DNA from: a virus
Lineage: Duplodnaviria > Heunggongvirae > Uroviricota > Caudoviricetes
Length of the DNA stretch: 8,909 nucleotides
Reading direction: 5' to 3' (one strand)
IMG/VR virus record: IMGVR_UViG_2700989167_000004
Position numbers and translations under genes: made by a program. The notes beneath the pieces were generated by a model. The model saw only the letters and a list, made by a program, of their open reading frames with translations. It made no database searches and was not told the DNA's origin. Below are positions 1 through 6,003 of this stretch, piece by piece (position 1 is the first letter of the stretch; every line of letters starts with the position of its first letter).

Positions 1-54
1 GAAAAATATCATCAGATGGCTGCTTAAAAAAAGAACAAATGGTAGTGTCCGCTA

Positions 55-378
55 TTGCCAGTACACCTCAAACTACTCATTGCCAGATGGGAACTGACCG
101 CAGAACAGGCTGTCGCACAGCAGTTAAAAAATCAGGTGTCAAAAGGAAATCTTATCGATACCGGATTTTGTATTTTTGCCCTTAGTAAGCTGGCGATGGC
201 TTTATCCAGTACGCTTGACTCCATTCCTTTGTCCATGCAACGACAGTTCCCGGATTTAACGCCGCGTCATATTGATCATCTGAAAATCCTTATTGCTAAG
301 GGAGCGAATCAGTGCGCGCGTGCGGGGGATAAATTACCGGATTTACTCGATGAATATATCAGAACAACAACTGAGTAA
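55..378 (+). CDS. nu1: Terminase small subunit (lambda Nu1-like), C-terminal portion only; the frame is closed upstream by stops at 25-27 and 43-45, so it is either truncated/pseudogenised or has a divergent N-terminus outside the window
   Basis: The translation (…LTAEQAVAQQLKNQVSKGNLIDTGFCIFALSKL…IPLSMQRQFPDLTPRHIDHL…LPDLLDEYI) aligns by eye with the C-terminal half of lambda Nu1 as recalled (…[33 protein letters not shown]…LPLSVQRRFPELENRHVDFL…IPGLLSEYI). Its 3' end overlaps the start of the terminase large-subunit gene by 29 nt, as in lambda. The track start at 55 is a TTG with no clear Shine-Dalgarno sequence. Confidence 0.6.
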   Translation: MPVHLKLLIARWELTAEQAVAQQLKNQVSKGNLIDTGFCIFALSKLAMALSSTLDSIPLSMQRQFPDLTPRHIDHLKILIAKGANQCARAGDKLPDLLDEYIRTTTE

Positions 379-2260
379 TATGATGGTGGCAGTCACTATC
401 GCACTGCAGCCACTGGTCAGGGTATTGCCGGTGACGGCTGTAGAATGGGCCGATCAAAATTATTACCTGCCTAAAGAATCGTCATACGGTGAGGGGGAAT
501 GGAAAACGCTGCAGTTTCAGGTCGCCATCATGAACTGCATGGGCAATGACGAGATTCGTACAGTTAACCTGATTAAATCTGCCCGTGTTGGTTATACAAA
601 AATGGTGCTTGGTGTGATCGGGTATTTTATTGAGCACAAATCCCGCAACACTCTTCTTTTTCAGCCGACGGACTCAGCTGCTGAAGATTTTATGAAGTCT
701 CACGTGGAAGCAACAATTCGTGATGTTCCTTGCCTGAAAAAACTTTCTCCCTGGCTGGGCCGGAAACACCGGGATAATACGCTCACACTGAAGCGTTTTT
801 CCTCTGGTGTGGGGTTCTGGTGTTTGGGTGGTGCTGCTGCCAAAAACTACCGTGAAAAATCTGTCGATGTGGTCTGCTATGACGAACTCTCCTCGTTTGA
901 ACCGGATGTGGAAAAAGAAGGTTCGCCAACACTGCTTGGCGATAAACGTATTGAAGGTTCGGTATGGCCAAAATCCATACGCGGTTCAACGCCAAAAATT
1001 AAAGGCTCCTGTCAGATTGAAAAAGCTGCGAATGAATCTGCGCATTTCATGCGGTTTTATGTCCCTTGCCCTCATTGCGGGGAGGAGCAGTATCTGAAGT
1101 TTGGCGATGATGCGACGTCGTTTGGCCTGAAATGGGAGAAGGGTAAACCGGAAACGGTGTATTACCTGTGTGAACATAATGGCTGCGTGATCCGTCAGTC
1201 TGAACTTGATCAGACCGGGGGGCGCTGGATTTGTGACAATACCGGGATGTGGACGTGTGACGGTCTGACGTTTTTCAGTGCTTCGGGTAATGAAATTCCG
1301 CCGCCGCGCTCCATCACTTTCCATATATGGACGGCGTACAGTCCGTTCACCACCAGGGTACAGATAGTCTGTGACTGGCTGGATGCACTGAAAGATCCCA
1401 ACGGCGTGAAAACTTTTGTGAACACCACGCTGGGCGAGACCTGGGAAGAGGCCGTGGGCGAAAAACTCGATCACCAGGTACTGATGGATAAGGTTGTGCC
1501 TTACACGGCAACGGTGCCTGTCCGGGTGGTTTATCTGACGGCGGGCATTGACTCGCAGCGAAACCGTTTTGAGATGTATGTCTGGGGGTGGGCTCCGGGA
1601 GAGGAAGCCTTTCTGGTGGATAAAATCATCATCATGGGACGTCCTGATGAGGAAGAGACGCTGTTACGTGTGGATGCGGCGATCAATAAAAAATACCGCC
1701 ATGCAGACGGTACCGAAATGACCATTTCCCGTGTCTGCTGGGATATCGGGGGGATCGATGGCGAAATCGTGTATCAGAGGTCAAAAAAACACGGTATTTT
1801 CCGGGTACTGCCGGTAAAAGGTGCCTCTGTCTATGGCAAGCCGGTGATCACCATGCCGAAAACCCGCAATCAGCGGGGTGTGTATCTGTGTGAGGTGGGG
1901 ACGGATACCGCAAAAGAAATTCTCTATGCCCGAATGAAGGCCGATCCCACCCCTGTGAATGAGGCCACATCGTATGCCATCCGCTTTCCTGATAATCCGG
2001 AGATTTTTTCGCAGACAGAGGCACAACAACTGGTGGCGGAGGAACTGGTGGAAAAGTGGGAAAAAGGAAAGATGCGTCTGTTGTGGGATAACAAAAAGCG
2101 GCGTAACGAAGCGCTGGACTGCCTGGTGTATGCCTATGCGGCATTACGTGTGTCCGTGCAACGCTGGCAACTTGATCTGGCTGTGCAGTTGCATCCCGCA
2201 AGGATGCAACTGCACAACCGACCCTTGAAGAACTGGCAGCGAAGCTGTCCGGAGGAGTGA
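350..2260 (+). CDS. A: Terminase large subunit (lambda gpA-like: ATPase/translocase plus cos-cleaving nuclease)
   Basis: A long ORF whose N-terminus from the ATG at 350 (MNISEQQLSN…TAVEWADQNYYLPKESSYGEGEWKTLQFQVAIMN…) is colinear with recalled lambda gpA (MNISNSQVNRL…TAVEWADANYYLPKESAYQEGRWETLPFQRAIMN…); strong similarity continues through the body (KNYREKSVDV, GDKRIEGSVWPKSIRGSTPK, CPHCGEEQYLKFGD, FVNTTLGETWE, GASVYGKPV, KKRRNEALDC). The track start at 293 is a TTG; the ATG at 350 matches the lambda N-terminus. The last ~27 codons look frame-discordant with lambda (see findings). Confidence 0.9.
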   Translation: MNISEQQLSNMMVAVTIALQPLVRVLPVTAVEWADQNYYLPKESSYGEGEWKTLQFQVAIMNCMGNDEIRTVNLIKSARVGYTKMVLGVIGYFIEHKSRNTLLFQPTDSAAEDFMKSHVEATIRDVPCLKKLSPWLGRKHRDNTLTLKRFSSGVGFWCLGGAAAKNYREKSVDVVCYDELSSFEPDVEKEGSPTLLGDKRIEGSVWPKSIRGSTPKIKGSCQIEKAANESAHFMRFYVPCPHCGEEQYLKFGDDATSFGLKWEKGKPETVYYLCEHNGCVIRQSELDQTGGRWICDNTGMWTCDGLTFFSASGNEIPPPRSITFHIWTAYSPFTTRVQIVCDWLDALKDPNGVKTFVNTTLGETWEEAVGEKLDHQVLMDKVVPYTATVPVRVVYLTAGIDSQRNRFEMYVWGWAPGEEAFLVDKIIIMGRPDEEETLLRVDAAINKKYRHADGTEMTISRVCWDIGGIDGEIVYQRSKKHGIFRVLPVKGASVYGKPVITMPKTRNQRGVYLCEVGTDTAKEILYARMKADPTPVNEATSYAIRFPDNPEIFSQTEAQQLVAEELVEKWEKGKMRLLWDNKKRRNEALDCLVYAYAALRVSVQRWQLDLAVQLHPARMQLHNRPLKNWQRSCPEE

Positions 2261-2464
2261 ATGGTTACAGTCGCTGAACTGCAGGCGCTGCGTCAGGCGC
2301 GCCTTGATTTATTAACCGGTAAACGGGTTGTGTCGGTACAGAAAGACGGTCGCAGGATCGAATATACGGCAGCGTCCCTGAATGAGCTTAACCGTGCGAT
2401 CAACGATGCGGAGTCGGTTCTGGGTACGACCCGACGCCGCCGACCGCTGGGAGTGAGGTTATGA
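2261..2464 (+). CDS. W: Head-tail joining protein W (gpW-like)
   Basis: A 67-aa ORF (…LLTGKRVVSVQKDGRRIEYTAASLNEL…TRRRRP…) matches recalled lambda gpW (…[27 protein letters not shown]…TQRRRGP…). GGAGG at 2251-2255 sits 5 nt upstream of the ATG; the start abuts the terminase stop (TGAATG) and the stop overlaps the portal start (ATGA). Confidence 0.88.
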   Translation: MVTVAELQALRQARLDLLTGKRVVSVQKDGRRIEYTAASLNELNRAINDAESVLGTTRRRRPLGVRL

Positions 2465-4054
2465 AACGAACGCCTGTCCTGATTGATGTGAACGGCGTTC
2501 CGCTTCGTGAGAGTCTCAGCTACAACGGAGGCGGCGCAGGATTTGGCGGGCAAATGGCAGAGTGGTTACCACCGGCGCAGAGTGCCGATGCGGCCCTGTT
2601 GCCTGCATTGCGTCTGGGGAATGCCCGGGCAGATGATCTGGTGCGCAATAACGGTATCGCGGCTAATGCGGTGGCCCTGCATAAGGATCATATCGTCGGG
2701 CACATGTTTCTTATCAGCTACCGTCTGAACTGGCGTTGGCTGGGGATGCGGGAGACCACGGCAAAAAGTTTTGTCGGGGAGGTGGAAGCAGCCTGGTCGG
2801 AATACGCAGAAGGAATGTTTGGCGAGATCGACGTGGAAGGGAAACGCACGTTTACGGAATTTATCCGTGAAGGGGTGGGCGTGCATGCCTTTAACGGCGA
2901 AATCTTTGTGCAGCCGGTCTGGGATACGGAAACCACGCAGTTATTCCGTACGCGTTTTAAAGCCGTGAGTCCGAAACGGGTGGACACGCCAGGACACGGT
3001 ATGGGGAACCACTTTCTGCGGGCCGGGGTTGAGGTCGATCGGTATGGGCGGGCGATTGCGTACCATATCTGTGAGGATGATTTTCCGTTCTCTGGTGCCG
3101 GACGCTGGGAGCGGATCCCGCGTGAGCTTCCCACCGGGCGTCCGGCCATGCTGCATATTTTTGAGCCGGTGGAGGACGGGCAGACCCGTGGGGCTAATCA
3201 GTTTTACAGCGTAATGGAGCGGATGAAGATGCTGGACTCCCTGCAGGCCACGCAGCTTCAGTCGGCCATTGTGAAGGCGATGTATGCAGCCACAATCGAA
3301 AGTGAACTTGATACCGAAAAGGCATTTGAATATATCGCGGGGGCACCGCAAGGTCAGCAGGATAATCCGCTTATTAATATTCTGGAGAAGTTCACCCGCT
3401 GGTATGACACGAATAACGTGACGCTGGGCGGTGTTAAAATTCCGCACCTTTTTTCCTGGCGATGCGCTGAACCTGCAGACAGCGCAGGATTCAGACAATG
3501 GATTTTCGGCGCTTGAACAGGCGCTGCTGCGGTATATTGCAGCCGGTCTTGGCGTTTCCTACGAACAGTTGTCCCGTGATTACTCGAAGGTCAGTTACTC
3601 AAGTGCCCGCGCCTCCGCCAATGAGTCGTGGCGCTATTTTATGGGGCGGCGAAAATTTATTGCGGCCCGGCTGGCCACGCAGATGTTTTCCTGCTGGCTG
3701 GAAGAGGCGCTTCTTCGGGGGATTATTCGTCCGCCACGGGCACGTTTTGATTTTTACCAGGCGCGTTCAGCCTGGTCACGGGCAGAGTGGATTAGCTCCG
3801 GAAGAATGGCCATTGACGGGCTCAAGGAGGTCCAGGAATCGGTGATGCGCATTGAGGCCGGACTGAGCACGTATGAGAAAGAACTGGCACTGATGGGCGA
3901 AGATTATCAGGACATTTTCCGCCAGCAGGTCAGGGAATCCGCAGAGCGCGAAAAAGCCGGACTCTCACGTCCGGTGTGGATAGCCCAGGCGTATCAGCAG
4001 CAGATAGCGGAGAGTCGCAGGCCGGAAGAGGAGACAACATCACGTGAGACGTAA
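2461..4054 (+). pseudogene. B: Portal protein (lambda gpB-like), split into two ORFs (2461..3516 and 3431..4054) by a +1 frameshift in a T6 run at 3449-3454
   Basis: The first ORF matches the lambda gpB N-terminal two-thirds (…YNGGGAGFGGQ…GNARADDLVRNNG…FEPVEDGQTRGANQFYSVMERMKMLDSLQATQLQSAIVKAMYAATIESELDT…GGVKIPHL). The second ORF matches the remainder (…PGDALNLQTAQDSDNG…LLRYIAAGLGVSYEQLSR…ARASANESW…SGRMAIDGLKEVQE…IEAGLSTYEKE…). Removing one T from the T6 run gives …KIPHLFPGDALNLQ…, colinear with lambda …KVPHLMPGDSLNLQ…. Confidence 0.85.
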
Positions 4055-5619
4055 TCTTTCACATATTATCGCTGCGGCATTCAATGAGCCGCTGCTTCTG
4101 GAGCCCGCCTATGCGCGGGTTTTCTTTTGCGCGCTCGGGCGTGAGATGGGCGCAGCAAGCCTTTCGGTACCGCAACAGCAGGTACAGCTTGACGCTCCCG
4201 GGATGCTGGCTGAAACGGACGAGTACATGGCCGGAGGCAAACGACCTGCCCGTGTTTACCGGGTGGTGAACGGTATTGCTGTACTGCCGGTGACCGGCAC
4301 GCTGGTACACCGGCTGGGTGGCATGCGGCCATTTTCCGGAATGACTGGCTATGACGGCATTGTCGCCTGTCTTCAGCAGGCAATGGCGGACACTCAGGTA
4401 CGGGGCGTACTGCTGGACATTGACAGTTCTGGCGGGCAGGCCACCGGCGCGTTTGACTGCGCTGACATGATTTACCGTCTCCGGCAGCTGAAGCCTGTCT
4501 GGGCACTGTGCAATGACACGGCCTGTTCAGCCGCCATGTTACTGGCATCGGCCTGCTCCCGACGGCTGGTTACCCAGACATCCCGTATCGGCTCCATTGG
4601 GGTGATGATGGGCCATGTCAGCTATGCCGGTCATCTGGCACAGGCCGGTGTGGATATCACGCTGATTTACGCCGGATCGCACAAGGTGGATGGCAATCAG
4701 TTTGAATCCCTGCCAGCAAAGGTTCGCCAGGACATGCAGCAGCGCATTGATGCGGCGCGCCGGATGTTTGCTGAAAAAGTGGCGATGTATACCGGTTTAT
4801 CTGTGGATGCGGTTATGGGAACAGAGGCCGCCGTTTTTGAAGGTCAGTCCGGTATTGAGGCCGAACTGGCGGATGAATTAATCAATGCGTCGGACGCCAT
4901 CAGCGTGATGGCTGCGACGCTGAACACACACGATACAGGAGGCACTATGCCGCAATTAACTGCAACGGAGGCTGCCGCGCAGGAGAACCAGCGAGTGATG
5001 GGGATCCTGACGTGTCAGGAAGCGAAAGGACGTGAACAACTGGCCACGATGCTGGCAGGGCAACAGGGTATGAGCGTTGAGCAGGCCCGGGCGATTCTGG
5101 CCGTGGCGGCACCGCAACAATCTGGTGTATCTGCGCAGAGTGAAGCCGATCGCATTATGGCATGTGAAGAGGCGAAAGGACGTGAACAACTGGCGGCAAC
5201 GCTGGCGGCGATGCCGGAGATGACGGTGGAAAAAGCCCGTCCGATTCTGGCTGCTTCACCGCAGGCGAATGCCGGACCCTCACTTCGTGATCAGATTATG
5301 GCCCTGGATGAGGCAAAAGGGGCAGAGGCGCAGGCTGAAAAACTGGCGGCCTGTCCGGGGATGACCGTGGAGAATGCCCGGGCTGTACTGGCGGGGGNNN
5401 NNNNNNNNNNNNNNNNNNNNNNNNNNNNNNNNNNNNNNNNNNNNNNNNNNNNNNNNNNNNNNNNNNNNNNNNNNNNNNNNNNNNNNNNNNNNNNNNNNNN
5501 NNNNNNNNNNNNNTGAACATTTCATGGCGAACCATTCACCGGCAGCGGTACAGGGTGGCGTGCCACAGACGTCAGCAGACGGTGATGCGGACGTGAAAAT
5601 GCTCATGGCCATGCCATGA
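4044..5619 (+). CDS. C: Prohead protease / minor capsid protein C (lambda gpC-like, S49 SppA-type peptidase family); interrupted by an assembly gap (N run 5398-5513), so the true length and frame across the gap are unknown
   Basis: From the GTG start at 4044 (GGAG about 10 nt upstream) the N-terminus RRNLSHIIAAAFNEPLLLEPAYARVFFCAL matches recalled lambda gpC (ELRNLPHIASMAFNEPLMLEPAYARVFFCAL). Further conserved blocks include NGIAVLPVTGTLV, SGMTGYDGI, GAFDCADMI, KPVWAL, SRRLVTQTSRIGSIGVMM, ITLIYAGSHKVDGN and YTGLSV. The post-gap ORF ends at the TGA at 5617-5619. Confidence 0.8.
4947..5619 (+). CDS. nu3: Nu3-like scaffolding protein, a nested in-frame internal start within C (by analogy with lambda C/Nu3); spans the assembly gap
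   Basis: An in-frame ATG at 4947 is preceded by a strong AGGAGG (4937-4942). The product begins MPQLTATEAAAQENQRVMGIL, positionally equivalent to the recalled lambda Nu3 start inside C (GGRMTKETQ…NSRIMGIL). Confidence 0.5.
5013..5397 (+). repeat. In-frame tandem repeat (about 141-150 nt period, at least 3 imperfect copies) inside the C/Nu3 coding region, running into the assembly gap
   Basis: Copies start near 5013, 5163 and 5304 and encode CQEAKGREQLATMLAGQQGMSVEQARAILAVAAPQQ / CEEAKGREQLAATLAAMPEMTVEKARPILAASPQAN / LDEAKGAEAQAEKLAACPGMTVENARAVLAG. A near-exact 23-nt core gcgaaaggacgtgaacaactggc recurs at 5022-5044 and 5172-5194. Lambda gpC/Nu3, as recalled, has one copy (CEEAHGREEQARVLAETPGMTVKTARRILAAAPQ). 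Confidence 0.7.
5398..5513. other. Assembly gap (116 consecutive N)
   Basis: Direct observation of an N run. The reading frame before the gap (codons in phase with 4044) and after it (in phase with 5374) differ, so the gap length is a placeholder. Confidence 0.99.
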
Positions 5620-5655
5620 AGTCAGTGCTGACCATCAATATGAGGTTTTTACAAT

Positions 5656-6003
5656 ATGGTAACGAAAACCATCACTGAACAGCGTGCGGAAGTACGTATT
5701 TTTGCCGGTAATGATCCGGCCCATACCGCCACAGGCTGCAGCGGGATTTCCTCGGCAACACCGGCTCTGACGCCCCTGATGCTGGATGAGGATACCGGGA
5801 AACTGGTGGTCTGGGACGGACAGAAGGCAGGCCATGTGGTTGGCATACTGGTACTGCCGCTTGAAGGTACAGAGACGGTGCTGACGTATTACAAGTCGGG
5901 GACCTTTGCGACGGAGGCCATCCACTGGCCTGAGAGAGTGGATACACACAAAAAGGCGAATGCCTTTGCCGGCAGTGCCCTGAGTCACGCAGCGCTGCCG
6001 TAA
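5656..6003 (+). CDS. D: Head decoration protein D (gpD-like)
   Basis: A 115-aa ORF with blocks DPAHTAT, TPLMLDE, KLVVWDG, VGIL, YYKSGTF, WPE and AFAG, colinear with recalled lambda gpD (…[37 protein letters not shown]…VGILA…TFYKSGTFRYEDVLWPE…RTAFAGTAISIV). GAGG lies about 10 nt upstream of the ATG. Confidence 0.9.
   Translation: MVTKTITEQRAEVRIFAGNDPAHTATGCSGISSATPALTPLMLDEDTGKLVVWDGQKAGHVVGILVLPLEGTETVLTYYKSGTFATEAIHWPERVDTHKKANAFAGSALSHAALP

Follow-up and report, generated by a model that had tools for sequence, protein, structure and literature searches.

The analysed stretch of 8,909 nt (the window) covers head genes of a phage-21-like prophage of Shigella flexneri that is now defective. 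Their order is Nu1 remnant, A, W, portal, S49 protease, D, E, FI, FII, Z, U, in which gene A occupies the slot between Nu1 and W–portal of a lambda-type head operon. Its closest intact relative is a prophage of Escherichia coli FDAARGOS_943 (L004), with 98.99% DNA identity over window positions 70–5392; gene A has 99% DNA identity to an intact E. coli prophage copy, and identity with phage 21 is ∼90% across 1900–2500 (gene A 3′ end, W and portal start). Related lambdoid prophages occupy up to 5 places per genome in S. flexneri and E. coli. The record contains a run of 116 N at 5398–5513; a tandem duplication, considered as the source of 70 extra bases at 5395–5513, was rejected, the stretch consisting of 116 N with no repeat. 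The features bearing on gene A and its neighbours are as follows.

1–69, plus strand: right end of an IS600 (IS3-family) copy, replacing the 5′ third of Nu1; homology to the intact relative starts at 70.
70–378, plus strand: remnant of the small terminase gene Nu1 without its N-terminal half (Pfam Phage_Nu1, profile positions 85–163 of 164).
350–2260, plus strand: terminase large subunit gene (phage 21 gene 2/lambda A type), 636 codons, with a 3′-end frameshift.
2182–2196, no strand assigned: left arm of a now-perfect 15-bp inverted repeat, TGTGCAGTTGCATCC, from the repeat search; this is the rewritten arm.
2186–2260, plus strand: out-of-frame tail QLHPARMQLHNRPLKNWQRSCPEE, from translation, with 24 codons at 2186–2257 and a premature stop TGA at 2258–2260.
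2187–2190, plus strand: lesion, ancestral TGGCG to AGTT, from pairwise alignments to L004 and to E. coli CFSAN029787 (L001).
2191–2277, plus strand: ancestral-frame remnant ASRKDATAQPTLEELAAKLSGGVNGYSR, closed by the original TGA at 2275–2277; identical to the L004 and L001 tails.
2202–2216, no strand assigned: right arm GGATGCAACTGCACA, unchanged between alleles; AACT at 2208–2211 is the putative template for the new AGTT.
2261–2464, plus strand: gene W (head–tail joining protein), intact (Pfam gpW, E 5e-22).
2461–4054, plus strand: portal gene, split into two ORFs (2461–3516 and 3431–4054) by an extra T in the T-run 3449–3454.

The body of the gene A product is readily recognised, with matches exceeding the curated cut-offs to the Pfam families GpA_ATPase (PF05876; residues 49–293, E 3e-53) and GpA_nuclease (PF20454; residues 323–601, E 1e-67). 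Translation of 2099–2263 in the annotated frame ends in ...RWQLDLAVQLHPARMQLHNRPLKNWQRSCPEE and a stop, with the ATG of W directly after it, and no tail of this kind was found among the homologues examined, namely phage 21, lambda and five E. coli proteins or prophage copies. The alternative frame starting at 2101, which has a TGA at 2173–2175 and is open from 2176, reads SGCAVASRKDATAQPTLEELAAKLSGGVNG and encodes ...ASRKDATAQPTLEELAAKLSGG..., the genuine tail of intact relatives: from ASRKDA to its end the peptide is identical to the FDAARGOS_943 prophage tail, and it aligns with the tails of phage 21 and lambda, the latter ending in RWQLDLSALLASLQEEDGAATNKKTLADYARALSGEDE (NC_001416) exactly as the initial annotation had given it. 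A portal-binding tail, with its ...LSG... motif after RWQLDL, is therefore not found in frame, being present only in the alternative frame at 2191–2277. The ancestral frame enters W by 17 nt and ends ...LSGGVNGYSR in phage 21 and the E. coli relatives, an overlap between gene A and W that is annotated in three intact relatives (L001, L002 and L003). The initial annotation was thus right that the annotated end is a frameshift product and that the genuine gpA-type tail lies in the other frame; it had put the out-of-frame end at ∼27 codons, where 24 and a stop are found. These 24 codons stand in for 30 ancestral ones, giving a protein of 636 rather than 642 residues. Gene A is accordingly, on its sequence, a member of the lambda/21-type GpA family by descent and a pseudogene as regards its tail.

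Pairwise alignments with intact relatives place one indel within gene A, at 2187–2190 and so inside the interval 2180–2190 where a lesion had been suspected, at which ancestral TGGCG is replaced by AGTT with a net loss of one base and three substitutions. This appears to be a single complex mutation, TGCTGGCGGCA to TGCAGTTGCA, that shifts the frame by −1 and exchanges the last 30 residues for 24 unrelated ones. The differences are tightly clustered, with four inside 5 nt against 5 others in the remaining 1.9 kb of the gene. TGGCG and AGTT were the sole states, with no intermediate alleles, among 22 related loci from E. coli, Shigella and IMG/VR, a survey that sampled loci through exact flank matches only. 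Every intact in-frame homologue examined has the TGGCG state (TGGCA in phage 21), and the AGTT allele occurs in none of 5426 complete E. coli genomes, from which the direction of change is read as TGGCG to AGTT. Searches for donor or intermediate alleles returned only the two end states across complete E. coli genomes, INPHARED phages, GTDB representatives and IMG/VR, and no match whatever in the JGI metagenomes scanned. No earlier account of the Shigella lesion turned up in a literature search.

The lesion lies within an inverted repeat, recovered by the repeat search as 18-nt arms at 2179–2196 and 2202–2219 with 94% complementarity and a 5-nt loop, for which the same search found no equivalent in L004 or phage 21. 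The new AGTT (2187–2190) is the exact complement of AACT at 2208–2211, and the 11-mer TGCAGTTGCAT occurs at 2184–2194 on the plus strand and at 2204–2214 on the minus strand, with no third copy in the window. In L004 the ancestral sequence forms an imperfect repeat, with stems of 6 bp and 5 bp around a 5 × 4 interior loop, which ranks first of 949 by stability among local 56-nt DNA folds across the ancestral gene; the calculated DNA hairpin energy is −19.9 kcal/mol for the derived allele against −11.4 kcal/mol for the ancestral one (z = −7.2). Only one of the 256 possible 4-mers at the lesion site creates the perfect 15-bp stem, and of 20,000 random 5-to-4 replacements placed anywhere in the gene, none yields a stem longer than 9 bp. 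Several marks of a quasipalindrome-directed mutation are present: an ancestral imperfect repeat, complementarity raised by the change, new bases that complement the opposite arm, and multiple changes that appear as one event, with no stepwise intermediates in the 22 loci. The repeat had gone unremarked in the initial annotation. The hairpin was also considered as a terminator and rejected, having no T-tract and not being called as one.

Judged from its product, a quasipalindrome template switch during DNA synthesis is the most likely origin of the lesion. Starting from the ancestral stems TGTGC/GCACA and GCATCC/GGATGC (5-nt loop), with the mismatched 5 × 4 interior between them, a nascent strand on which GGATGC had just been copied would fold back onto its own complementary GCATCC; AACT would then be copied from the arm already synthesised, and the strand would go back to its proper template via GCAC(A). 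Fold-back copying of this kind would in a single step produce exactly AGTT, with one base fewer than before. The full reading, that a single lesion made by quasipalindrome template switching was fixed in a decaying prophage, and that the gene is a pseudogene rather than an enzyme with a novel tail, is held to be highly probable.

The same sequence would also result from gene conversion of a short patch, with an allele outside the sample as donor, or from repair of hairpin mismatches. Conversion from another prophage allele bearing GCAGTTGCA in the same orientation is conceivable given up to 5 related lambdoid prophage places per genome, yet no donor was found in the 5426 complete E. coli genomes or the phage collection, nor on scanning IMG/VR, the GTDB representatives and the JGI metagenomes, and the window holds just one further copy of the 11-mer, inverted and 10 nt away; this origin is considered very unlikely. 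Little more than a slim chance is likewise given to a clustered multi-nucleotide mutation unrelated to the repeat, whether from error-prone synthesis or independent hits, that perfected the palindrome by accident: relaxed selection on the gene, evident in 4 nonsynonymous and 0 synonymous window-specific changes, speaks in its favour, but the accident would have to strike the gene's top-ranked quasipalindrome, draw the one 4-mer in 256 that completes the stem, where none of the 20,000 random replacements exceeded 9 bp, and leave no intermediates in the 22 loci.

A sequencing or assembly error confined to one record, as the initial annotation had allowed, might be entertained given the imperfect assembly betrayed by the 116-base N run and the homopolymer length change that constitutes the portal lesion; it is discounted by the exact 636-residue product being indexed in 2068 assembly-collection blocks and present on at least 1000 contigs, by carriers that include at least 8 independent complete or near-complete genomes (for example S. 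flexneri AE014073.1), and by the nature of the change, a four-change replacement outside homopolymers being an atypical error type. The two compensating indels originally proposed, near 2180–2190 and 2250–2257, which would bring the protein back into frame to end in EE abutting the start of W, superficially like the EDE of lambda, are no more credible: no second indel is seen near 2250–2257 in the alignments to CFSAN029787, where sequence 3′ of the lesion patch is identical to the segment end at window position 2300, or to FDAARGOS_943, where no differences are listed from the lesion patch to the extra T at 3449, and intact phage-21-type genes never re-enter the annotated frame, ending instead 17 nt inside W with ...GGVNGYSR, so that the EE ending is a coincidence. 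A functional arrangement, be it programmed ribosomal frameshifting or a new tail or hairpin selected for a new role, has in its favour the fixation and very wide spread of the allele within a single pathogen lineage, and is dismissed as next to impossible on the grounds that relatives use one continuous frame, the two-frame state being limited to the lesion lineage, where programmed frameshifting would call for a two-frame arrangement, with a slippery site, shared by relatives; that adjacent essential packaging genes are broken and invariant residues of the gene body have undergone radical change; that the hairpin lacks a T-tract and a terminator call; and that clonal descent with the IS600 and T6 markers accounts for the fixation.

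The template-switch reading is set in a prophage that is decaying throughout its head genes. The first 69 nt of the window belong to an IS600 copy, the corresponding element in a related locus (L010:8480–9720, ending at window position 69) being identified as 'IS3-like element IS600 family transposase' over 100% of its length at 99.7% identity, and the first 201 nt of the intact Nu1 gene (L004 5800–6000) are missing from the window; every S. flexneri-type locus that extends far enough shares this IS600 junction. In the portal gene, the T-run is T6 against T5 in L004, a +1 T frameshift, and the two resulting ORFs match positions 2–288 and 288–354 of Pfam Phage_portal_2. T6 always accompanies the AGTT allele and TGGCG was found with T5 only, so that the constant association of AGTT with T6, and with the IS600 junction where sequence reaches, is evidence for one origin only. 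Nor is the ATPase/nuclease body intact, as had been supposed: relative to L004 it carries P55Q, R303C, W336R and V483I with zero synonymous changes, the first three at residues invariant in all five homologues compared, lambda and phage 21 included, which argues for compromised terminase activity. Fixation of AGTT alongside the IS600 truncation and the portal +T marks gene A as a decaying pseudogene, and the fixation itself is attributed to clonal descent with these linked markers. With the tail lesion, the truncated Nu1 and the frameshifted portal gene combined, the prophage is, as far as its genes can be read, dead and incapable of packaging DNA. The expectation that a scrambled tail would impair packaging is consequently moot, Nu1 and the portal gene being broken in the same prophage.

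The TerL proteins encoded by phage 21 gene 2 and lambda gene A share both Pfam domains with the window product, and the gene order Nu1-A-W-B-C-D-E is common to these phages and the window; the motif ...PTL.ELAAKLSGG... of the alternative frame aligns with lambda's ...TLADYARALSGEDE. The intact phage-21-type tail is longer than that of lambda and overlaps W by 17 nt, compared with the 4-nt ATGA of lambda, whereas the window differs from both in its out-of-frame tail and in a body substituted at three invariant residues. The lambda Aam42 mutant, which lacks the last 5 residues of gpA, cuts cos and is defective in prohead binding (PMC4856287, PMC9026076). Homology together with this defect upholds the earlier proposal that the lost segment corresponds to the portal-docking C-terminus of lambda, and by analogy with lambda genetics the 30 lost residues would constitute the portal-docking tether, whose loss would abolish docking. 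The extreme C-terminus of TerL is lost in both cases; however, Aam42 loses 5 residues, while the window lesion removes 30, adds 24 unrelated ones, and is of natural origin, in a prophage whose Nu1 and portal genes are broken too.

Template-switch mutations associated with quasipalindromes were reportedly described by Ripley in 1982. They characteristically originate in DNA synthesis, show a strand bias and are suppressed by the 3′ exonucleases ExoI and ExoVII. The window lesion resembles such events in its prior imperfect repeat, in a combination of substitutions and frameshift that perfects the repeat, in the opposite-arm complement and in its all-or-none character. Quasipalindrome template switching has been studied by the Lovett laboratory at an E. 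coli thyA hotspot and with the lacZ QP5/QP6 reporters (PMC7202029); in contrast to laboratory reporters, the event described here is natural, lineage-fixed and inferred from comparative data. IS-riddled cryptic lambdoid prophages of Shigella and E. coli share the IS600 insertion, homopolymer frameshift and missense decay, and the window is unusual among them only in the templated nature of one lesion.

It is a speculative and very improbable extension of the template-switch reading that the quasipalindrome of the ASRKDATAQ-tail allele family is a recurrent natural hotspot, by which the portal-docking tail could be lost in one step as a repeatable route to prophage immobilisation. In that event the S. 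flexneri allele could serve as a natural reporter of template-switch mutagenesis outside the laboratory, a process stimulated in E. coli by fluoroquinolone exposure (PMC7202029).

The locus offers a clean, naturally fixed complex mutation, three substitutions and a frameshift, that one template switch would explain; it adds a case to a known mutation mechanism and leaves the present understanding of terminases and mutagenesis unchanged. Template-switch events make substitution counts look too high and may be taken for several indels, which is what occurred in the initial annotation. The 636-residue S. flexneri 'terminase large subunit', deposited many times as a normal protein, is the product of a C-terminally frameshifted pseudogene, and taking it to represent the gpA C-terminus would mislead.

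Gene A, the terminase large subunit gene (ORF 293/350-2260, + strand), is translated into a 636-aa protein with the C-terminal end ...RWQLDLAVQLHPARMQLHNRPLKNWQRSCPEE before its stop, which adjoins the W start ATG at 2261 without a gap. The protein carries the Pfam domains GpA_ATPase and GpA_nuclease, the pair of lambda-type large terminases, in the context of a lambda-type head operon (Nu1 remnant, A, W, portal, S49 protease, D, E, FI, FII, Z, U), and gene A belongs to the lambda/21 TerL family by descent. The in-frame portal-binding tail expected of that family is missing; the gene is a pseudogene that the present annotation shows as an ordinary protein. In the one-base-shifted frame a TGA at 2173-2175 is followed by a reading frame open from 2176, encoding SGCAVASRKDATAQPTLEELAAKLSGGVNG..., so that translation confirms the odd annotated tail and alternative frame recorded in the initial annotation, and the lambda gpA tail quoted there is correct in every letter. 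An E. coli terminase (P0006) has a naturally shorter in-frame tail, unrelated to the frameshift, ending ...RPTFEQLAAMLAGG; as it too comprises 636 aa, length by itself cannot identify the Shigella pseudogene.

Alignment of gene A with that of the intact E. coli FDAARGOS_943 prophage (L004; 98.99% identity to window 70-5392) contains one indel only, at window 2187-2190, where ancestral GTGC-TGGCG-GCATCC has become GTGC-AGTT-GCATCC through one lost base and three substitutions, all within five positions. The intact gene measures 1929 nt in phage 21, CFSAN029787, 2013C-3181 and FDAARGOS_943, and ends 17 nt past the W start codon, corresponding to TGA 2275-2277 in the window.

C-terminal ends of the intact protein, each followed by a stop
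Close relatives (E. coli CFSAN029787, L001, and FDAARGOS_943, L004): ...RWQLDLAVLAASRKDATAQPTLEELAAKLSGGVNGYSR
Phage 21: ...LAKSREEETTRPTLKELAAKLSGGVNGYSR

From codon 613 to codon 636 (nt 2186-2257) the frameshifted gene encodes 24 unrelated residues in place of 30 ancestral ones, with a stop at 2258-2260. Two compensating indels, near 2180-2190 and 2250-2257, had been proposed to account for the tail; the lesion is single, since the CFSAN029787 copy is identical to the window 3' of the patch to the end of the aligned segment (window 2300) and the alignments of the window with L004 list no difference between the patch and an extra T at 3449. With intact relatives ending 17 nt inside W, the likeness of the terminal EE-stop to the EDE-stop of lambda is a wrong-frame by-product. 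Sequencing error, offered as the other cause, is contradicted by the presence of the exact 636-aa sequence on at least 1000 contigs and in no fewer than eight complete or near-complete genomes that are independent of one another; the assembly collection lists it in 2068 indexed blocks under the name 'phage terminase large subunit (GpA) [Shigella flexneri]'.

The AGTT at 2187-2190 exactly complements AACT at 2208-2211, and completes a perfect 15-bp inverted repeat with a 5-nt loop between 2182-2196 (TGTGCAGTTGCATCC) and 2202-2216 (GGATGCAACTGCACA), extending to 18-nt arms with 94% complementarity; the repeat search reported no comparable inverted repeat in L004 or phage 21. In the ancestral allele, perfect stem segments of 6 bp and 5 bp flank a mismatched 5x4 interior, and this quasipalindrome ranks first for stability among the 949 overlapping 56-nt folds spanning the ancestral gene.

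Single-strand DNA hairpin energies
Phage 21: -5.8 kcal/mol
Ancestral allele (L004): -11.4 kcal/mol
Window: -19.9 kcal/mol (z = -7.2)

Chance is a poor explanation of the perfected repeat: of all 256 4-mers that could occupy the site, AGTT alone gives the 15-bp stem, and in 20,000 random 5-to-4 replacements placed throughout the gene the perfect stem at the mutated position never exceeded 9 bp. Elsewhere in gene A the window differs from L004 at five positions in about 1.84 kb, so that four separate hits in a stretch of 5 nt are not credible. A pattern scan with fixed flanks and 3-6 free bases recovered 22 loci, drawn from E. coli, Shigella and IMG/VR, all TGGCG or AGTT, with no intermediate alleles among them; the AGTT form was found in none of 5426 complete E. 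coli genomes.

In a quasipalindrome-associated template switch, a stalled nascent strand templates on itself and an imperfect repeat becomes perfect (PMC7202029). Judged by its sequence, the gene A lesion bears the defining signature of such an event, fitting every sequence-level criterion for mutations of this kind. A nascent minus-sense strand, once extended across the right arm, the loop and GGATGC, would fold back onto its own GCATCC, copy AACT and then GCAC from the arm already made, and return to the proper template via the GCAC(A)/(T)GTGC stem; these four steps would give exactly the window sequence. If intramolecular, the switch would rewrite the arm synthesised second, which, from the orientation and replichore in 2457T and assuming that the event occurred in that arrangement, would presumably be lagging strand. 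The alternatives to a template switch, namely clustered mutation unrelated to the repeat, ectopic gene conversion, a programmed frameshift, two indels and sequencing error, are improbable even when pooled.

Damage extends beyond this lesion. The right end of IS600 (window 1-69) adjoins codon 68 of Nu1, the small terminase gene, with the first 201 nt lost; the remnant (to 378) matches only positions 85-163 of 164 in Pfam Phage_Nu1, and the N-terminal DNA-binding half is therefore gone. In the portal gene (2461-4054), expansion of T5 to T6 at 3449-3454 relative to intact relatives causes a frameshift, leaving two ORFs of 351 aa and 207 aa. The CFSAN029787 portal is also annotated as frameshifted, yet has T5 at this site, and its lesion is thus different and independent. 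The gene A body carries four window-specific changes relative to L004, four nonsynonymous and none synonymous, a sign of relaxed selection.

Window-specific changes in the gene A body (+ strand)
Window 513: codon 55
Window 1256: codon 303
Window 1355: codon 336
Window 1796: codon 483

P55Q, R303C and W336R fall at residues invariant in five other homologues (lambda, phage 21 and three E. coli copies). Portal T6 occurs in every AGTT locus, the same IS600 junction in all AGTT loci whose sequence extends to it, and T5 in all TGGCG loci where the T-run was found; this linkage of AGTT, T6 and IS600 argues for a single origin and clonal inheritance.

Prophage copies in genomes named S. flexneri or in S. 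flexneri records of the collection, among them AE014073.1 (S. flexneri 2a 2457T), are 99.98-100% identical to the window; phage 21 shows ~90% identity across 1900-2500. The sole departure of the window from the S. flexneri copies is a 116-N run at 5398-5513, in the 3' portion of C/Nu3, the protease/scaffold gene, replacing 49 nt of the other copies, with the three preceding bases likewise differing; the 490-aa truncated ORF 4044-5516 is an artefact of this gap or masking. Relative to FDAARGOS_943, gene C has a compensating pair of 1-nt indels 6 nt apart (5123-5129) and the C-D intergenic region a 2-nt insertion (5646-5647), both within a far more diverged patch (4970-5392 and 5514-5750; ~57 differences in 5000-5750) that suggests a mosaic or recombinant segment. 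Some S. flexneri strains have a group II intron-type reverse transcriptase (Pfam RVT_1 and GIIM; L005 4432-5853 and L006 1-1167, two prophage loci) in or near the late-regulatory region, in the upstream part of the same prophage, absent from others, and several further IS copies differ between strains. The 4.44-Mb CP178302.1 (L017), titled E. coli strain ECMA0423, shares AGTT, the IS600 junction and portal T6 with S. flexneri genomes, and probably represents the Shigella lineage despite its E. coli label.

The C-terminus of lambda TerL is a tether docking on the portal, and Aam42, which removes its last five residues, retains cos cutting and loses prohead binding (PMC4856287; PMC9026076). The phage-21-type tail aligns with that of lambda through ...TL..[LY]A..LSG and, by homology with lambda, the 636-aa window protein should be unable to dock. 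The suggestion that a scrambled tail would impair packaging despite an intact gpA body survives, by this homology, for docking, but not for the body, which is hit at the three invariant residues. With Nu1 truncated, the portal split and the gene A body altered, docking is an academic question for this prophage. The finding is one of well-explained, ordinary prophage decay, in which the lesion is instructive as a one-step complex mutation mimicking several events.
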